A DNA stretch of 24,980 nt from Desulfobacterales bacterium (GCA_030066135.1 JASJCD010000018.1:1-24980), one strand, 5' to 3'. Counted from the first letter of the stretch, positions 2,487 to 24,835 are shown. A program made the numbers and translations. Notes: generated by a model from the letters alone, not told the origin.

Positions 2487-4661
2487 ATGCAAGCCGGTCA
2501 TCATAACCTGTGGACGACAGACTGGGAGGCCTACTGGACCGATGCGGCCCAGCGTGCCGTCCTGTTCACCGACATTTTACGCAAACGCGGCAATGTCTAT
2601 CTGGAACACCTGCTCAGCGACCAACCCCCCGTGCTGGTCTTCGATTACGAAACCATCCTGGACGGCCGCGATTTCGATCCGCCGGTCAACTATGCCCTGG
2701 TGCGAATCATCGATCGGCGGCGCGAAGGGCGGCCCGTACCTGGGGGCGCTGCCGCAGAAAGGCGGCACCAGGCATCGGTTGCCGTCGAGGCCCCCGAGGC
2801 GACGCGCCGTCCGATCGTCATTTTCGATCCGCGCGCCGGGCACGGTCCGGGCATCGGCGGCTCCAAGAAGGATTCCCAGATCGGCATGGCCCTGGATGCC
2901 GGCCACCCGGTCTATTTCCTGATCTTCTTCACCCGACCCGCGCCTGACCAGACCCTGTCCGATGTGCGCAATGCCCAGATCAAATTTGTCGAGGCGGTGC
3001 GCCAACGCCACCCCAACGCTCCCCGCCCGGCCATCATCGGCAACTGCCAGGGTGGGTGGGCCGCGGCCCTCGTGGGCGCCGAGCGACCCGATCTGGTAGG
3101 TCCGATGGTGTTTAACGGCTCCCCGCTTTCCTACTGGGGGGGCGTGGAAGGGGTCAACCCCATGCGCTACCTGGGCGGCCTGATTGGCGGTGTCTGGCTC
3201 AATTCCTTGCTCAGCGATCTGGGCCACGGCTACTTCGACGGGGCCAACCTGGTGGCCAATTTCGAAAACCTCAATCCGGCCAACACGCTCTGGACCAAGC
3301 TCTACCACGTTTACGCCAATGTGGATACGGAAGAAAAACGCTTCCTGGATTTCGAGAAGTGGTGGGGCGGTTTTTTTCTCATGACCGACCGGGAGATCCA
3401 CCAGATCGTCGACGGCCTTTTCGTGGGCAACAAACTCGAGCGGGGTGAATTCGAACTCGAGGCCGGCCGCCGGGTCGATCTGAAGAACAACGACAACCCG
3501 GTGGTCGTCTTTGCTTCCTTCGGGGACAACATAACCCCGCCCCAGCAGGCCTACAACTGGATCGTCAAGACCTACGGCACGGTCGAGGAGATCAAACGCC
3601 GCGGACAGGTGATCGTGGGCATCGGGCATTCGAAAATCGGCCACCTGGGCATCTTCGTTTCCGCCAAGATCGCCCGCAAGGAGCACAAGGAGATCATCGC
3701 CAGCTTCGATATGCTCCATTACCTGCCCCCCGGTCTCTACGAAATGCAGATCGAAGAGGAACCGGATGCGCCCGGTGAATATGCCGTGCGCTACGTCGAG
3801 AAATCCATGGACGATATCCTGGCCCTCGACGACGGACTGGAGGACGAGAAGGCCTTCCTGGCCGTGCGCCAGACCTCGGAGGTCAACGACCGCCTCTACC
3901 GCAGCCTCGTATCCCCCTGGATGCGCCTGGCGGTTCCCACGGGTATGGCTGAAACCATACGCCAGCTCCACCCCCTGCGCGTCCAGCGCTACATGCTCTC
4001 CGATCTGAACCCCTGGATGATTCCCATCAGGGCCTGGGCCGACGTTATTAAAAATAACGACCGCCGCCAGCCGGTGGGCGAGGACAACATCTATCGCATC
4101 TGGGAAAAGCGCATGTCCGACACGATCGTGGACGGGCTCAACCTCTACCGCGATATGCGCGACGCGGCCTGCGAGCTGATGTTTCAGACCATCTACGAAA
4201 GCCCCTGGATGAAGATGCTCTCGGACTTCGTGGGCCCCGTAGCCCCCCGCAACGACCAAGAACTCGAGGAGATGCGCCGGCGTGATGCCGAGCGCTGGCG
4301 CCGCCACATGACCACGGGCGAGTTCGAAGACGCCGTGGTGCGGATTTTCCTGGCCATCGGCTTTTCCGACCAGGTGGTGCGCCGCAAGGGTTACAAGGTC
4401 ATCGGCCGGCTGTTTGCCGATAACCCGCGGATGAGGGCCCTGGATCTCGATGACCTGCAGCAGATTGTGCGCGAGCAGTCCCGGATCGTGCAGACCGACG
4501 TGGATCAGGCCATCGAGCATCTGCCCCGGCTGCTGCCCCGGGGAAAAGATCGTCGGGAAGCCCTGGCCATGATCGCCGAGGCCGAACGCACGATCGGACG
4601 GCCCCTGGCCCCCCAGGAAGATGCCATGATCGAGCGGGTCCGAGGCGTCCTGGCCGCGTAA
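2487..4661 (+). CDS. DUF3141-family alpha/beta-hydrolase-fold protein (PHA-synthase-like large protein)
   Basis: 724 aa. Segments characteristic of DUF3141: NCQGGWAAALVGAERPDLVGPMVFNGSPLSYWGG and WTDAAQRAVLFTDILRKRGNVYLEH near the N-terminus. Start taken at MQAGHH (2487), not the upstream ATG at 2394. Confidence 0.7.
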   Translation: MQAGHHNLWTTDWEAYWTDAAQRAVLFTDILRKRGNVYLEHLLSDQPPVLVFDYETILDGRDFDPPVNYALVRIIDRRREGRPVPGGAAAERRHQASVAVEAPEATRRPIVIFDPRAGHGPGIGGSKKDSQIGMALDAGHPVYFLIFFTRPAPDQTLSDVRNAQIKFVEAVRQRHPNAPRPAIIGNCQGGWAAALVGAERPDLVGPMVFNGSPLSYWGGVEGVNPMRYLGGLIGGVWLNSLLSDLGHGYFDGANLVANFENLNPANTLWTKLYHVYANVDTEEKRFLDFEKWWGGFFLMTDREIHQIVDGLFVGNKLERGEFELEAGRRVDLKNNDNPVVVFASFGDNITPPQQAYNWIVKTYGTVEEIKRRGQVIVGIGHSKIGHLGIFVSAKIARKEHKEIIASFDMLHYLPPGLYEMQIEEEPDAPGEYAVRYVEKSMDDILALDDGLEDEKAFLAVRQTSEVNDRLYRSLVSPWMRLAVPTGMAETIRQLHPLRVQRYMLSDLNPWMIPIRAWADVIKNNDRRQPVGEDNIYRIWEKRMSDTIVDGLNLYRDMRDAACELMFQTIYESPWMKMLSDFVGPVAPRNDQELEEMRRRDAERWRRHMTTGEFEDAVVRIFLAIGFSDQVVRRKGYKVIGRLFADNPRMRALDLDDLQQIVREQSRIVQTDVDQAIEHLPRLLPRGKDRREALAMIAEAERTIGRPLAPQEDAMIERVRGVLAA

Positions 4662-17852: not shown

Positions 17853-18176
17853 GGGGGGCTAATACAGATTTTAAGGCCTCAGGTAGCTTCCCGTATGCTT
17901 GGTCGATCTGTTGGGGTTTGCTTTTTCCCCTTTGTAGGCACCGAGGCATTGAACGGAGCAGGCCCGCGGACTGTCTGAGCGCAGCGAGTTTCCGCGGGAC
18001 CCGTTCAATGCATTGACGCGCAGGATTAAGCGGGACACGGGCGGTTTCTTTTGGTTCGTTTTCTTTAACGCTAAAGAAAATGAACTAATCAAACCCTGAA
18101 GCCATGCTACGGACCGGTAGAACCTCTTCGAAGTCTCGACCAGAGGTGCAGGGTTTGGATCAAAACAAGCCTGACT
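17853..18176 (+). repeat. Repeat family A, full copy (about 320 bp), unclassified structured element
   Basis: About 85% identical to 21521-21832. Shared blocks: GCTTGGTC-ATCTGTTG, TTTTTCCCCTTTG, GACTGTCTGAGCGNAGCGAGTTTCCGCG, GGATTAAGCGGGACACGGGCGGTTTCTTTTGGTTCGTTTTCTTT, AAAGAAAATGAAC, ACCAGAG-TG-AGGGTTT-GATCA. Contains an AU-rich extended hairpin (GGTTTCTTTTGGTTCGTTTTCTTTA-ACGC-TAAAGAAAATGAACTAATCAAACC). Overlaps the 5' end of the ORF at 18104. Confidence 0.7.
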
Positions 18177-18499
18177 ATGTTTTAAATCGATTTGATGGAA
18201 CCTGCAACTTTTCTGCAGTTGAAATGTCGAAACTTGCCACCTCATCCACGGAGGCTAATTTTTGGATTAGACGTCACTTTAACTTCAAACCTATTTTTAA
18301 GTCGGGCAGGGGGTCGGTCTTGGCGGGAAGGTTCGGTAAATACGGCGATCTCAAGCGCCGCCGGGCGCTGCAGCGGGGCCGCCGGGCAAAGGCCCGGCTG
18401 GCCGGAGCATCCACCGCGGCCCGACAAAACCGCCGGCAAGTCCTTTCCGCCGCGCACACCCCTTTGCAATCCGCTGCCCGGAAGACGCACAAGACCGCG

Positions 18500-19015
18500 G
18501 TGGTCATCATTCCCCCCGATGACCTCTGGGCCCCCATCCAGGCCCTGCGCCAGGCGTACGACCGCAATTCCCGGCGTTGGATGCCGCATATCACGCTCCT
18601 CTACCCTTTTCGGCCACGGTCCGCGTTTGGGCAGGTCGCCCCTGCACTGGCGCAGACCTGTCGTCTGATAAAGCCGTTTGAGGTGCGTCTGCAACGCTTC
18701 GATTTTTTCGTGCACGGCTCCCGCAGCGCCACCTTCTACCTGGCCCCCGAACCGGCCAGTGCGCTCAGAGCGCTGCAGCGGGGCCTGCTGGAAAAGGTGC
18801 CCGACTGCAGCGACACGGGCCGGTTTGACGGCGGGTTCATCCCCCACCTCAGCCTGGGTCAGGCGCGCAGCCGGGAGGTCGAAGCCTTGTGCCGCCGATG
18901 GCAGGCCACCTGGCGTCCCCTGGCCTTCACCCTGGAAAAGGTCCACCTGATCTGGCGCAACGATCCGCCGGACGACATCTTTCGACACGGGCCGGTGCTG
19001 CCGCTGGGTCCATAA
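18500..19015 (+). CDS. 2H phosphoesterase superfamily protein (LigT/ThpR-like RNA 2',3'-cyclic phosphodiesterase / 2'-5' RNA ligase family)
   Basis: Two H-x-T/S-x motifs (PHITLLYPF and PHLSLGQ) with LigT-like spacing. The ORF is open from 18104, but its N-terminal 130 aa are Arg-rich low-complexity sequence overlapping repeat A. The start is placed at GTG 18500 to give a LigT-sized 171-aa product. An alternative TTG at 18320 is preceded by AGGGGG. Start is uncertain. Confidence 0.6.
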   Translation: MVIIPPDDLWAPIQALRQAYDRNSRRWMPHITLLYPFRPRSAFGQVAPALAQTCRLIKPFEVRLQRFDFFVHGSRSATFYLAPEPASALRALQRGLLEKVPDCSDTGRFDGGFIPHLSLGQARSREVEALCRRWQATWRPLAFTLEKVHLIWRNDPPDDIFRHGPVLPLGP

Positions 19016-19020
19016 AAACC

Positions 19021-19271
19021 AGCTGATGTTCTCACGCCAAGCCGCTCAGCGCGACAGAAAACCTTATACCTCACGCAAAGTCGCTAAGCTCGCAAAGGAC
19101 AGCACGTTTATTTATCTTGGCCTCCGGTCAATGCAAACCATTTCAATTTCTGGATTTAATCAAATCAGAAATTGAAATATCTGTTCTTGAGTAGTGCTTT
19201 GCGCCTTTGCGCCTCCGCGTGAGATATGCTTTTTACAGTTTCCATGCGATACTTGGCGTCTTGGCGTGGGG
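19021..19271 (+). repeat. Repeat family B, copy 1 (about 250 bp structured palindromic element)
   Basis: 5' arm has two TCACGC(C)AAG-CGC-AAGC-type subrepeats. Small hairpin TTGGCC-TCC-GGTCAA (19117-19131). Long hairpin ATTTCAATTTCTGGATT-taatca-AATCAGAAATTGAAAT (19140-19179). 3' arm CTTTGCGCCTTTGCGCCTCCGCGTGAG plus CTTGGCGTCTTGGCGTGGGG is the imperfect reverse complement of the 5' arm. Starts 6 nt after the stop of the 2H gene and ends about 120 nt before the 19393 start. Confidence 0.7.
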
Positions 19272-19392
19272 CTATGCCGTTTTAAGTACCACGTGTCAGG
19301 TCGGACAAGCTTCAACCGACAAACTGTCAATGCACCGTTTAACGCATCAGCTCGCGCGAGCCTGAGCAGAATTTTGAAGGGAGTTTAGAGAG

Positions 19393-19890
19393 ATGAGAAT
19401 ACTAACCGCCATCATCGTATTGGCGTTTTGCGCCAGCGCCTATGGCAGCCAGACCGCACAGAATCCCGAGGAGGTCGGCAACGTCAACTGGGGGCGGGAT
19501 TTCGATGCGGCCCTCCAGATGAGCGCTGCCTCCGGCAAGCCCGTGCTGGTCCTGTTTCAGGAAGTTCCGGGCTGACCGGGGGTACGCGCGTTCGGCCGTG
19601 AAGTGCTGACCAACCCCCAGCTGGTAAAGGCCATCGAGGAAGAATTCATCCCGATGCTCGTCTACAACAACCGCAGCGGCGGCATGGACCGTGAACTGCT
19701 GGAGCGCTATGGCGAGCCCACCTGGAACTTTCAGGTGATCCGCTTTCTGGATGCCGAAGGAGAGGACATCATTCCCCGCAAGGACCGCGTCTGGACCACG
19801 AGCGGCGTGGCCCGGCGCATGGTCAAGACCCTCAGGGTCGTCAAACGCCCGGTGCCGGATTACCTGGAAAACCTCGCCGGAAACGAATGA
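19393..19890 (+). CDS. Periplasmic thioredoxin-fold protein (Thioredoxin_7 / DsbD-gamma-like) with in-frame TGA at 19573-19575: candidate selenoprotein, otherwise a nonsense-disrupted pseudogene
   Basis: Two track ORFs (19393-19575 and 19603-19890) are in the same frame, separated only by the TGA. The joined product is signal peptide (MRILTAIIVLAFCASAYG) + GKPVLVLFQEVPG-U-PGVRAF... + ...ELLERYGEPTWNFQVIRFLDAEGED. This aligns by eye to DsbD-gamma GKPVMLDLYADWCVACKEF...[22 protein letters not shown], with the TGA falling at the first Cys of the CxxC. RBS GAAGGGAG upstream. Confidence 0.55.
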
Positions 19891-20224
19891 CAACCCCTTC
19901 CCGAATCCGGATAGGTGCTAGAGCATATCGTCATCGGCGTCTCTTGTTTCCCCAGCGGGACGTCTACATGCACCCCCTTCCGACCGATGCTTCTGGTTCG
20001 CCTAAAAGGGTTCAAAATGATCGTAGAAGTCGGGCGTGCAAGGGGCCGGGGCATCGTCCCTGACAGGCGCGCATCGAGACCACCAGCGGTTAGGCTCAAC
20101 GAACAACCCAAAACCGTGGCAAACGCCCGGTTCCGGCTGACCTGCAAATCCTCGCAGGAATCCATTGACGGCATCCGTCAGATCAACACCGAGACCAAGG
20201 TGCCTATCAGGGACTGGTCTCTGC

Positions 20225-20431
20225 CTATTCCAGTTTAAAGGAGACTTTCAATTTGGTGCGATAGCCGACGATGCGGTTGTCCTCCAGGCGCATGTCCATT
20301 TGAACCACTTCCGCCACGCGGATGTCGCGAATGGAGCGGTCGACCGCACGCACGGCCGCCTTGGCTGCATCTTCCCAGGACTTTTCGGAAAACCCCACGA
20401 CTTCGATAACTTTGTAGACAGCATCATCCAT
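20225..20431 (-). CDS. Dodecin (small flavin-binding protein), 68 aa
   Basis: MDDAVYKVIEVVGFSEKSWEDAAKAAVRAVDRSIRDIRVAEVVQMDMRLEDNRIVGYRTKLKVSFKLE fits the dodecin family pattern (YKVIExVGxSxxSWEDA...LRDLRVAEV...YR.KLKVSF.LE). RBS GGAAAGGAG before the ATG. The track ORF 20225-21217 is an artefactual upstream extension. Confidence 0.8.
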   Translation of the reverse strand: MDDAVYKVIEVVGFSEKSWEDAAKAAVRAVDRSIRDIRVAEVVQMDMRLEDNRIVGYRTKLKVSFKLE

Positions 20432-21520: not shown

Positions 21521-21832
21521 CGGGGGGCCCCAGCTAGCCGCCCACAGGGGGCTTGGTCAATCTGTTGAGGTATAGGTTTTTCCCCTTTGTCCCGCGCCGA
21601 GCATCGACACGGCGGGCGGAATCAGCGCGCGGACTTGTCTGAGCGAAGCGAGTTTCCGCGCGCGCCGCTCGTTGGGGCGACGCACAGGATTAAGCGGGAC
21701 ACGGGCGGTTTCTTTTGGTTCGTTTTCTTTGCCGGGAAAGAAAATGAACAAACATAACAATAAAATCAGATCACGGATCGGTCCAAACTCGCTGGGTCCT
21801 CCACCAGAGATGGAGGGTTTAGATCACGACTA
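21521..21832 (+). repeat. Repeat family A, full copy 2 (about 310 bp)
   Basis: See 17853-18176. Hairpin loop differs (GCCGGG versus ACGC) with stems preserved. A distal hairpin CCTCCA-ccagaga-TGGAGG replaces CCTCT-tcgaagtctcgacc-AGAGG, keeping ACCAGAG in the loop. Lies between the DUF2459 and PEBP genes. Confidence 0.7.
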
Positions 21833-21864: not shown

Positions 21865-22341
21865 CTACTGCCCCTTGGCATAGGTTCCCACCAGCTCCGC
21901 CCGTGCAAGAATGTGTCCCTGCATGGCCGCCTCCACCTGGGCCTTGGTGGGATTGCCCAGGCCCTCCAGGCGCGTGTCCAGGGCATAGAGCTTGTGGAAA
22001 TACCGATGGCGCCCGATCGGCGGGCAGGGCCCCCCGTAGCCGGTCCGCTGCCAGTCGTTCAATCCTTCCCCGGTGCCGGCCGGCAGATCGCGGTCCGCCA
22101 CGTCCTGCGCCAGGCCAGCATCCCCGGCCGGCAGGTTGAAGAGCACCCAGTGAACCCATGTCATCTTGGGCGCTTTGGGGTCCGGTGCGTCGGGATCGTC
22201 GACGATCAGCACCAGGCTGCGGGCATCGGCGGGCACTCCCGACCATGCCAGGGGCGGGGACACGTCCTGCCCCTCGCAGGTATACTGCTTCGGGATGGCG
22301 TCGCCGTCTTTGAAGGCCTCCGACTCGATTTTCATTGCCAT
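21865..22341 (-). CDS. YbhB/YbcL-family phosphatidylethanolamine-binding (PEBP / Raf-kinase-inhibitor-like) protein
   Basis: 158 aa from MAMKIES with RBS AAAGGAGAGG. Family blocks PPLAWSGVP, LVLIVDDPDAPDP, WVHWVLFNLPA, GYGGPCPPIGRHRYFHKLYALD. Confidence 0.85.
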   Translation of the reverse strand: MAMKIESEAFKDGDAIPKQYTCEGQDVSPPLAWSGVPADARSLVLIVDDPDAPDPKAPKMTWVHWVLFNLPAGDAGLAQDVADRDLPAGTGEGLNDWQRTGYGGPCPPIGRHRYFHKLYALDTRLEGLGNPTKAQVEAAMQGHILARAELVGTYAKGQ

Positions 22342-22908
22342 GTCGCCTCTCCTTTCGATCACGGGCCGCCCGGCAGGATCAGGCCGCCGGCCACCGCCGG
22401 GATCATGATGCTGAATTAAAGCAATATAATCATGATGACCACGCCCGGTGTATTGGCAGCCCCGACATCGACGGATGCGTCTGTCGATGGTATTCTGCGA
22501 CCTGGCCCGTCATGCATTGCCTTATCGTATCGATAATCAAAACTTTGCCCCAGATTCATTCCCGCCGCTGTTTTCCAGCTGGACAAAACGTGTCACTCCA
22601 CCTGACATATCATGTCCAGCCGTCCGCGAACCGGTCACGCCTAAAAATCCTTACCGCCTGATATCAATGTACAATCTGGACATCCACCAATACGGCACAG
22701 GATTTGCTTCAGATATAAGCGGATAAAATGAGTTAAGTCGATGATATGCACCCAACAAATCAACATGATGCATGGATATTGAAACCATATCGATATGGGG
22801 GCCACCGTGAGAAGTGCATTCGATTTTTTTGATATCGTGTCGGTCGTCATCGTTCTAACGGCCGTTCTTCGACTGAGCACCGTCAATTAGCGCAAACCAC
22901 AATCAGGG

Positions 22909-23106
22909 ATCACGCCAGACCGCAAAGCGCGACAGAAAACTTTATATTGGACGCCAAGCCGCGAAGCTCGCAAAGAAAATCAAAAGTTTTTATTTGGCCT
23001 CCGGCCAATGCAAACGGTTACCTTTTCTGGAATCGGAAGATTCAGAAAAGGTAACAATCCGTTCTTAAGCAGTTCTTTGCGCCTTTGCGACTCCGCGTGA
23101 GGAATG
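22909..23106 (+). repeat. Repeat family B, copy 2 (about 200 bp)
   Basis: TCACGCCAGACCGCAAAGCGCGACAG + GGACGCCAAGCCGCGAAGCTCGCAAAG arm. Small hairpin TTGGCC-TCC-GGCCAA (22994-23008). Long hairpin GTTACCTTTTCTGGAATC-ggaa-GATTCAGAAAAGGTAAC (23027-23055). 3' arm CTTTGCGCCTTTGCGACTCCGCGTGAGG. About 190 nt upstream of the 23295 gene. Confidence 0.7.
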
Positions 23107-23294
23107 CAGTTACCCGGCCCCGGGCCGGAGCCCCCGCCATTTCCCGGACCTTGAACCAGGATCATCATAGAGCCGCAGCCCCCGTTTTCCGGAATAAACC
23201 TGACTTGTTGACTTGACAGGTTTTTCGTCCTACACACGATATGTCTCCACGTGATGGCAACGATTGCTTATAGACCCTTTTTCTGTCAGCCGGC

Positions 23295-23675: not shown

Positions 23676-23717
23676 GTCGATCCGTCCCCTCGCCTCCATG
23701 AGGCCGCCAAGCCTGAA

Positions 23718-24022
23718 AAGAAAGACAACTCCAAAGCTCACGCCAAGCCGCAAAGCTCGCAATGGAAAGCTATTGGTTTTAGTTCCTCGGTCGCAGACCG
23801 ATGCAAGCCGTTACCTTTTCTGGAATCCAAAGGATTCAGAAAAGGTAACTATCTGTTCTTAGGCAGTTCTTTGCGCCTTTGCGTCTTTGCGTGAGGCATG
23901 CTGTTAGCAGTTTCAACTTGGTCCCTGGAGCATTAGCGTCTGTCGTCTCCGCGTGAGATATGCTTCTCGCAGTTACTATGCAGTTCGCGGTGTATTCGCG
24001 TGAGGTAAGGGAAGGTAAAGGC
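23718..24022 (+). repeat. Repeat family B, copy 3 (about 300 bp)
   Basis: GAAAGACAACTCCAAAGCTCACGCCAAGCCGCAAAGCTCGCAA arm. Small hairpin TCGGTC-GCA-GACCGA (23787-23801), a different sequence giving the same structure. Long hairpin GTTACCTTTTCTGGAATCC-aaa-GGATTCAGAAAAGGTAAC (23810-23849). 3' arm has three GCGTGAG subrepeats and ends GTGAGGTAAGGGAAGG. Starts 43 nt after the 23675 stop and ends at the stop of the convergent 24043 gene. Confidence 0.7.
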
Positions 24023-24474: not shown

Positions 24475-24513
24475 ACTTACCTTTCCATATCTTCGATTAA
24501 CTGACAGCTAACA

Positions 24514-24835
24514 GAGAAAGACAACTTCAGGTTTCACGCCAAGCCGCAAAGCACGCCAGAAAAGCAACAACATTTCTCACGCAAAGCCGCCAAGCCCGCA
24601 AAAAAAACCAATATGTTATCTTTCGGCCTTCGGCCGAAGCATCCCGTTACCTTTTCTGGAATCCAACGGATTCAGAAAAGGTAACAATCTGTTCGCAGCC
24701 GTTCTTTGCGCCTTAGCGTCTTTGCGTGACAAATATGGCCGTTAATGCTTTATCTGCGTTCATCTGTGTCAATCTGCGGCCAACTAATCTGTTCTTGTGC
24801 CTCAGCATCATGGCGTGAGGCAAGGGAAAAAAAAG
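24514..24835 (+). repeat. Repeat family B, copy 4 (about 320 bp)
   Basis: AGAGAAAGACAACTTCAGGTTTCACGCCAAGCCGCAAAGCACGCC + TCACGCAAAGCCGCCAAGCCCGCAAAAAAAA arm. Small hairpin TTCGGCC-TTC-GGCCGAA (24622-24638). Long hairpin GTTACCTTTTCTGGAATCC-aac-GGATTCAGAAAAGGTAAC (24646-24685). 3' arm CTTTGCGCCTTAGCGTCTTTGCGTGAC ... CATGGCGTGAGGCAAGGGAAAAAAAAGGGG. About 40 nt upstream of the divergent start of the 24474 gene. Confidence 0.7.

Follow-up and report, generated by a model that had tools for sequence, protein, structure and literature searches.

A TGA codon that interrupts a small gene of the DNA studied here very probably encodes selenocysteine (Sec), and the gene itself appears to be a single intact one whose predicted product is a small exported protein of the thioredoxin fold. 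This reading rests on comparative sequence analysis. In the window, i.e., the whole stretch of 24,980 nt that was analysed, translation shows positions 19393–19890 of the plus strand to form one frame of 165 codons plus a terminal TGA, and the sole internal stop is the TGA at 19573–19575, which lies within the motif LFQEVPG*PGVRAFGRE. The ORFs listed on either side of it, 19393–19575 (60 aa) and 19603–19890 (95 aa), have this frame in common, as stated in an earlier note that described the two as one frame broken only by the TGA. A hydrophobic N-terminus is present in all homologues, with variable sequence, and residues 15–23 of the structural model of a close Cys homologue (P0001, see below) have low pLDDT. 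The features of the gene and the loci used for comparison are compiled in Table 1.

Table 1. Features of the candidate selenoprotein gene and loci of related genes (L numbers)
Feature	Position or loci	Strand	Comment
Shine-Dalgarno-like GAAGGGAG	19376–19383	+	9 nt before ATG; read from the sequence, function presumed
Complete candidate selenoprotein CDS	19393–19890	+	165 codons; Sec would be codon 61; terminal TGA 19888–19890
Predicted Sec-type signal peptide MRILTAIIVLAFCASAYG	19393–19446	+	Cleavage probably before SQTAQ (predicted)
UGA, putatively read as selenocysteine	19573–19575	+	N-terminal nucleophile position of CxxC-type motif, here U-P-G-V
SECIS-like hairpin	19578–19618	+	Lower stem 19578–19583/19613–19618; upper stem 19586–19593/19600–19606
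TGA at the same codon	L001, L002, L004, L050, L057, L059, L069, L070, L077, L079, L094, L103, L114, L152, L163, L178, L186
Fused full-length members and nearby msrA	L050, L059, L069, L070, L077, L079 (about 3000–4000); L007 2277–2903; L080 3025–3669; L063 3733–4398

Both halves of the gene are carried in GenBank as "hypothetical protein" entries of a Desulfobacterales MAG (MDJ0808943.1, 60 aa; MDJ0808944.1, 95 aa); thus, the selenoprotein is currently unannotated, and the deltaproteobacterial origin assumed in the earlier note is borne out. A second Desulfobacterales MAG has both of these proteins as well (MDJ0885566.1 and MDJ0885565.1), and gene callers split the relatives at loci L081 and L082 in the same way. 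Taken literally, this annotation describes two separate small genes, one for a 60-aa secreted peptide and the other for a 95-aa protein translated from GTG 19603. That reading, for which the matching gene-caller output in the window source, L081 and L082 speaks, is exceedingly improbable in our opinion: neither half makes a complete fold, whereas joined they yield one thioredoxin domain co-linear with homologues of 165 aa; the nine codons that lead from the TGA to the GTG (PGVRAFGRE) are conserved as protein; and no ribosome-binding site precedes 19603. An antisense ORF of 163 aa (19402–19893) was rejected as a shadow of the conserved sense gene; its recurrence in relatives is due only to its overlap with that gene.

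The first line of evidence for a single Sec-containing gene is the pairing of the TGA with cysteine. A search of 5.8 billion proteins returned 348 matches, the best 120 of which were aligned. Nearly all of these 120 are 160–190 residues long; they cover the whole query, with 63–82% identity, and every one of them (120/120) has Cys at the site aligned with the TGA, within the motif QE[IV]PGC[SA]G[VC]. Altogether, more than 190 homologues have Cys at exactly that codon. P0001, a Cys homologue of 165 aa, is 82% identical to the window protein over the full length. A sequence profile, furthermore, aligns the TGA site with the first Cys of GCVNC in PDB entry 3f9u. Together with the 120 aligned homologues, this upholds the placement of the UGA at the redox-active Cys position, which the earlier note had made from the sequence of the window. 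The note had also proposed a search for homologues with Cys or Sec codons at the aligned position: of 80 related genome loci, 70 have a Cys codon there (40 TGT, 30 TGC), and the other 10 have TGA. The U-P-G-V motif was likewise read correctly, and its Val is real, being shared with Cys-containing sister sequences (CSGV).

The second line of evidence is the conservation of the TGA and of the frame that follows it. Of the 10 genome loci with TGA, seven belong to MAGs labelled as Verrucomicrobiota or Akkermansia; the other three are L001, from a Desulfobacterales MAG, L002, from the Delta 4 endosymbiont of Olavius algarvensis, and L004. Scanning metagenomes for the pattern FQE[VI]PG-TGA revealed at least seven further family members with TGA, from several lineages. 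Five independent metagenome contigs likewise encode exactly the 60-aa N-terminal half and continue with the TGA and the downstream frame seen here; these contigs are strain variants of 87–98% nucleotide identity, some of them with a different upstream gene context. In comparisons with five TGA-bearing orthologues, dN/dS over codons 62–165 is 0.15–0.32 at dS of 0.10–0.83; therefore, the part of the gene after the TGA is translated in this frame. A neighbour-joining tree places the window sequence in a monophyletic Desulfobacterales clade of U-x-G-V forms, which is sister to the C-S-G-V forms. The same tree shows Sec forms interspersed with Cys forms in Verrucomicrobia, and this apparent alternation is the usual pattern of repeated Sec/Cys exchange.

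These observations bear directly on the proposal that a point change turned TGC or TGT into TGA, or that the assembly is in error at this base, and that the downstream half is untranslated. We consider such a pseudogene or error highly improbable. It is true that one base separates TGA from the Cys codons, that GenBank holds two separate hypothetical proteins, and that the hairpin described below is not statistically stabler than shuffled sequences. But at least nine distinct sequences within one clade carry the TGA, at dS values reaching 0.8, and the TGA recurs both in independent assemblies and in strain variants; the low downstream dN/dS is accompanied by neither frameshifts nor further stops; and the same codon is TGA again in Verrucomicrobia. 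Sec read-through rather than decay, for which the earlier note had argued, is thus favoured by the Cys/Sec pairing, by conservation of the TGA with purifying selection downstream, and by a hairpin that conforms to the bacterial SECIS (bSECIS) consensus.

Of the 17 genes recognisable in the window, 9 end with TGA, the selenoprotein gene among them. TGA is therefore an ordinary stop codon under no global reassignment, and a local signal is needed for its decoding as Sec. Neither sel genes nor tRNA-Sec were found in the 24,980-nt contig, to which this search extended, in agreement with the observation of the earlier note that the window holds no sel genes. Nor did a screen of other TGA-interrupted genes across the window reveal a convincing second selenoprotein. 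Here the possibility has to be weighed that the UGA is read through without selenocysteine, by a Trp or Cys tRNA that is near-cognate or through some other recoding signal, as would apply if the genome had no Sec machinery. This explanation gains from the outcome of the search within the contig and from the fact that conservation of the frame reflects translation only and not the identity of the inserted residue. We nevertheless deem it very unlikely, because the site is that of an invariant nucleophilic Cys, the classical position of Sec/Cys exchange; because the downstream hairpin agrees with the bSECIS consensus in the register of fdhF; because NCBI curates the family as a selenoprotein family; and because TGA serves so commonly as a terminator in the window. 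In addition, a close orthologue occurs in the Delta 4 symbiont of Olavius algarvensis, whose selenoproteome is documented and is counted as 20 genes from known selenoprotein families and three from new ones (PMC1976440).

The candidate for the local signal that decoding of the UGA as Sec would call for is a hairpin directly downstream of it. The earlier note had held that no SECIS-like hairpin could be confidently folded by eye in the 50 nt after the UGA; this claim did not stand, since such a hairpin folds at 19578–19618. Its upper stem has a bulged G19590, and its apical loop is GGCCGU (19594–19599), or GCCG if G19594 and U19599 pair. When the U of UGA is taken as nt 1, nt 6–11 (GGGGGU) pair with nt 41–46 (ACCCCC), and nt 14–21 pair with nt 28–34, leaving G18 bulged; the loop comprises nt 22–27 and becomes GCCG if G22–U27 closes. 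The minimum free energy (MFE) of nt 1–50 is −17.3 kcal/mol. The published bSECIS consensus specifies an apical loop of 3–9 nt with G in one of its first two positions, an upper stem of 4–16 bp, a distance of 16–37 nt from the UGA, and an MFE of −7.5 kcal/mol or lower (PMC13188914). On all these points the window hairpin agrees: the loop begins with G and starts 18–19 nt after the UGA, and the upper stem has 7–8 bp with one bulge.

Each of the eight Sec forms from Desulfobacterales (8/8) keeps an upper hairpin at this position, and one pair of the lower stem shows a double change in L002, from G9–C43 to U9–A43. In the Sec forms from Verrucomicrobia the stem is unambiguous, with 8 bp closed by the loop GGUC (nt 22–25); among them, compensatory changes from CAG...ACU to CGU...GAC preserve the pairing while the encoded residues change from Q/T to R/D. 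The mean MFE of nt 10–38 is −8.0 kcal/mol in Sec forms versus −4.6 kcal/mol in Cys forms (Mann-Whitney p = 9e-7, shared ancestry being ignored), and the motif UUCGGYC is present at nt 19–25 in 16 of 18 distinct Sec sequences versus 17 of 70 distinct Cys sequences (Fisher p = 7e-7, shared ancestry again being ignored). These two comparisons support selection on the hairpin.

Relative to dinucleotide shuffles of this GC-rich stretch, the hairpin has no extra stability (z = +0.44 and −0.24, the latter for nt 1–50); therefore, thermodynamics alone cannot carry the SECIS claim. A search of the whole window against Rfam at gathering thresholds gave no SECIS match, and a search of 19540–19680 at E ≤ 10 gave only a meaningless lncRNA match, from which we conclude that Rfam holds no fitting SECIS model. 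For the eight Desulfobacterales Sec forms, RNAalifold prefers a pairing within nt 4–27, which violates the spacing rule, the apical region being too near the UGA; this alternative was not adopted, though it is conceivable. The UUC...GAA part of the hairpin derives from the conserved F-G-R-E codons and forms in some Cys homologues too. Synonymous diversity over the SECIS codons, compared between Sec and Cys forms, shows no specific reduction.

With U replaced by C, the product matches Pfam PF13899 (Thioredoxin_7) at 30.9 bits, above the gathering threshold of 27. The AlphaFold model of P0001 (pLDDT 84.5) has thioredoxin topology, with a β-α-β-α-β-β-α core and the Cys directly before helix 62–70, and Foldseek searches with this model return 3f9u, DsbH, DsbD-γ, and AGR2/3. 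The Pfam score and the Foldseek matches of the 82%-identical homologue (3f9u, DsbH, DsbD-γ) substantiate the complete Thioredoxin_7/DsbD-γ-like domain that had been recognised in the window sequence. The mature window protein has no other Cys.

The family of this domain is already known. Against NCBIfam NF041383 ("VPGUxxT family thioredoxin-like (seleno)protein, type 2"), the product scores 201.5 bits (E = 2e-59) and does not reach the curated cutoff of 275, because only positions 1–136 of the 287 in the model are covered. The V-P-G-U motif of this family is present (QEVPGUPGV); the Thr implied by the U-x-x-T of its name is absent and is Val in the window protein, and the Sec-containing full-length members examined have Cys at that fourth position. 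The full architecture, in which the thioredoxin-like domain is followed by a C-terminal MsrA-fold domain, was not found in the window either, since the gene ends at 19890. By the NCBI cutoff, then, the window protein lies outside NF041383; its domain is nonetheless clearly homologous, and, judged by sequence, the predicted protein is a free-standing N-terminal thioredoxin module of the NF041383/OS_HP5 family. Both NF041383 and NF041382 (type 1 of the same family name) belong to the curated "exception" models for selenoproteins, and this family has been listed as the hypothetical protein OS_HP5 of Olavius symbionts (PMC13188914; PMC9312934). An N-terminal fragment of the Delta 4 symbiont orthologue was found in the AASZ01 Olavius metagenome, and for this reason OS_HP5 may be identical with the short form described here. 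When 1.84 billion representatives were searched with a profile, 1,434 clusters matched at E ≤ 0.001, most of them of 280–390 residues with the domain placed N-terminally. The protein family has already been predicted to be a selenoprotein family, and the window gene is a new, mis-annotated short-form member of it.

The long forms suggest a possible physiological context. Full-length NF041383 members score 297–381 bits and have weak matches to Pfam PMSR, which fall in the C-terminal half (AFAMFCFWTGE...). At the Verrucomicrobial Sec loci, read-through gives products of about 320 residues; that of L059, at 365 bits, is a true NF041383 member. A model of a long form (pLDDT 93) has MsrA structures as its first matches. 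Moreover, a separate canonical msrA gene (GCFWC motif) is found near the thioredoxin-like gene in 13 of 81 loci and is directly adjacent to it in most of these; the msrA genes read through carry a signal peptide. One example is L007, which encodes a short C-S-G-V form and is a close relative of the window clade. Of the window ORFs that were scanned, none is an msrA, and the link to MsrA is therefore one of family association only. The neighbours in the window are genes for a LigT-like 2',5' RNA ligase, a dodecin, a DUF2459 protein, and a PEBP; the gene appears monocistronic, since neighbourhoods differ between orthologues (L001, L081).

Because the long forms fuse an MsrA-fold domain and many relatives adjoin a secreted msrA, we tentatively suggest that the protein might act as a periplasmic single-selenol reductant or partner in the repair of methionine sulfoxide or of similar oxidative damage; this is a plausible proposal to which we give somewhat less than even credence. 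A direct peroxidase- or reductase-like role, as put forward in the earlier note, is possible as well, although the fusions and gene neighbours point towards methionine sulfoxide reductase rather than a thiol-peroxidase. More speculative, and in our estimate rather unlikely to hold in full, is the idea that the short U-x-G-V proteins of Desulfobacterales constitute a functionally distinct subclass, missed by curated models and annotated as two hypothetical ORFs, whose members would be either dedicated redox partners of secreted MsrA-type enzymes or direct reductants of sulfoxides or peroxides via a selenenic acid, to be recycled by a periplasmic thiol donor.

By analogy with fdhF, decoding would proceed as follows. 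When the ribosome reaches the UGA at 19573, the hairpin at 19578–19618 would recruit SelB with Sec-tRNA(Sec); selenocysteine would be inserted instead of termination, and translation would run on to the stop at 19888. By position, the selenol would stand at the N-terminus of helix α-1, in the place of the attacking Cys of thioredoxin-like proteins, and its chemistry is what we infer from that place. The resolving Cys is replaced by Val and the mature protein has no further Cys, which together point to a single-selenol redox centre; such a centre would presumably form a selenenylsulfide with a partner.

Several other features of the window deserve mention. A MITE-like or REP-like repeat of about 200–240 nt is present in four copies (19032–19267, 22910–23145, 23699–23939, and 24503–24734), one of which lies directly upstream of the selenoprotein gene. 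Its ends are inverted (TCACGCnAAG...CGCAAAG and CTTTGCGCCTTTGCGnCTCCGCGTGAG), and palindromes lie within it (TTGGCCTCCGGCCAA and GTTACCTTTTCTGGAATCC...GGATTCAGAAAAGGTAAC); the copy at 19025–19275 folds at −82.9 kcal/mol (z = −4.6 versus shuffles). At two loci of strain variants (L081 621–2671 and L082 2–1596), two radical-SAM genes are located between the 2',5' RNA ligase gene and the repeat with the selenoprotein gene. Since the window has no radical-SAM genes there, the difference resembles the outcome of an insertion or deletion at the repeat.

The 334-nt spacer after the selenoprotein gene (19891–20224) consists of gene relics. Positions 19945–19975 encode FPQRDVYMHP, the C-terminus of an MscS-like channel, the gene for which is intact at the same place in L001 (3584–4681). 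Positions 20120–20169 are an 82% copy of the 3' end of the selenoprotein gene (19842–19891), with a stop at the same position; the same 3'-end relic adjoins the dodecin gene in L001. The ORFs 19887–20063 and 19915–20238, which have no family matches and are made of such relics, were rejected as genes. Further upstream, a tRNA-like element (14403–14480, plus strand) lies between divergent rtcR (12429–14039, minus strand) and rtcB (14739–16076, plus strand). ARAGORN identifies it as tRNA-Asn with an odd anticodon, ATT, and it matches the Rfam tRNA model at 43.9 bits; rather than a working tRNA, it may represent a tRNA-mimic or Y-RNA-like module belonging to an Rtc RNA-repair operon. Finally, a direct repeat of 191 nt (77% identity) occupies 17972–18162, where it covers the start of the 2',5' RNA ligase-like ORF (18104–19015) and the region upstream of it, and 21636–21826, just downstream of the PEBP gene (21865–22509, minus strand).

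The value of identifying the selenoprotein gene is mostly practical: a real, intact gene is carried in GenBank as two hypothetical proteins, and the curated selenoprotein model misses it because a short single-domain form is measured against a full-length cutoff. The same mis-annotation extends across the whole Desulfobacterales U-x-G-V clade, where it inflates counts of small orphan ORFs and deflates counts of selenoproteomes. The gene would add one more exported single-selenol thioredoxin-fold protein to the selenoproteome of the relatives of marine sulfate reducers. The data on fusions and neighbourhoods provide, in addition, a testable link between the uncharacterised OS_HP5 family and periplasmic methionine sulfoxide repair. 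What is known of Sec decoding itself is left unchanged by this gene.

Among known systems, the NF041383/NF041382 proteins are the nearest. The N-terminal domains are homologous over model positions 1–136 (E = 2e-59), and they share the E-V-P-G-U motif, the placement of Sec at the thioredoxin nucleophile position, the interchange of Sec with Cys, and the same taxa (Desulfobacterota, Verrucomicrobiota, Planctomycetota). Unlike these proteins, the window protein has no C-terminal MsrA-fold domain of about 150 residues, and its fourth position is Val instead of Thr or Cys. The long forms of the family, in turn, resemble Neisseria PilB (Trx-MsrA-MsrB) and secreted MsrA systems in that a thioredoxin-like domain is fused to an MsrA fold, and msrA genes lie near 13 loci of the family; the window domain, in contrast, stands alone, and the long forms have a divergent MsrA-like domain (FCFWTGE, weak PMSR).

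The best matches among solved structures, by both structure and sequence, are the thioredoxin_7 domains of DsbD-γ, DsbH, and the "cytochrome c biogenesis-related" protein 3f9u of Bacteroides. These domains, too, are exported thioredoxin folds in which the nucleophile stands where helix α-1 starts; however, they are CxxC dithiol proteins of 16–20% identity, none of which has Sec or a single nucleophile. A single attacking residue that is not accompanied by a resolving Cys is found in AGR2/AGR3, which are among the Foldseek matches, and in other CxxS monothiol proteins of the thioredoxin fold. AGR2 and AGR3 are eukaryotic ER proteins that use Cys rather than Sec, and, as identity is only 16–19%, any relationship is remote at most.

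The hairpin, finally, can be compared with the SECIS of E. coli fdhF, the upper stem-loop of which spans nt 15–31 and has a bulged base and G23/U24 in its loop (PMC8659212). Both hairpins lie directly 3' of the UGA and comprise two stems (lower and upper), a 5' arm with a single bulged base, and a loop at nt 22–25 that includes G23. They differ in that the window loop is GGCC(GU) instead of GGUC, i.e., it has C24 rather than U24, and in that the bulged base is G18 rather than U17.
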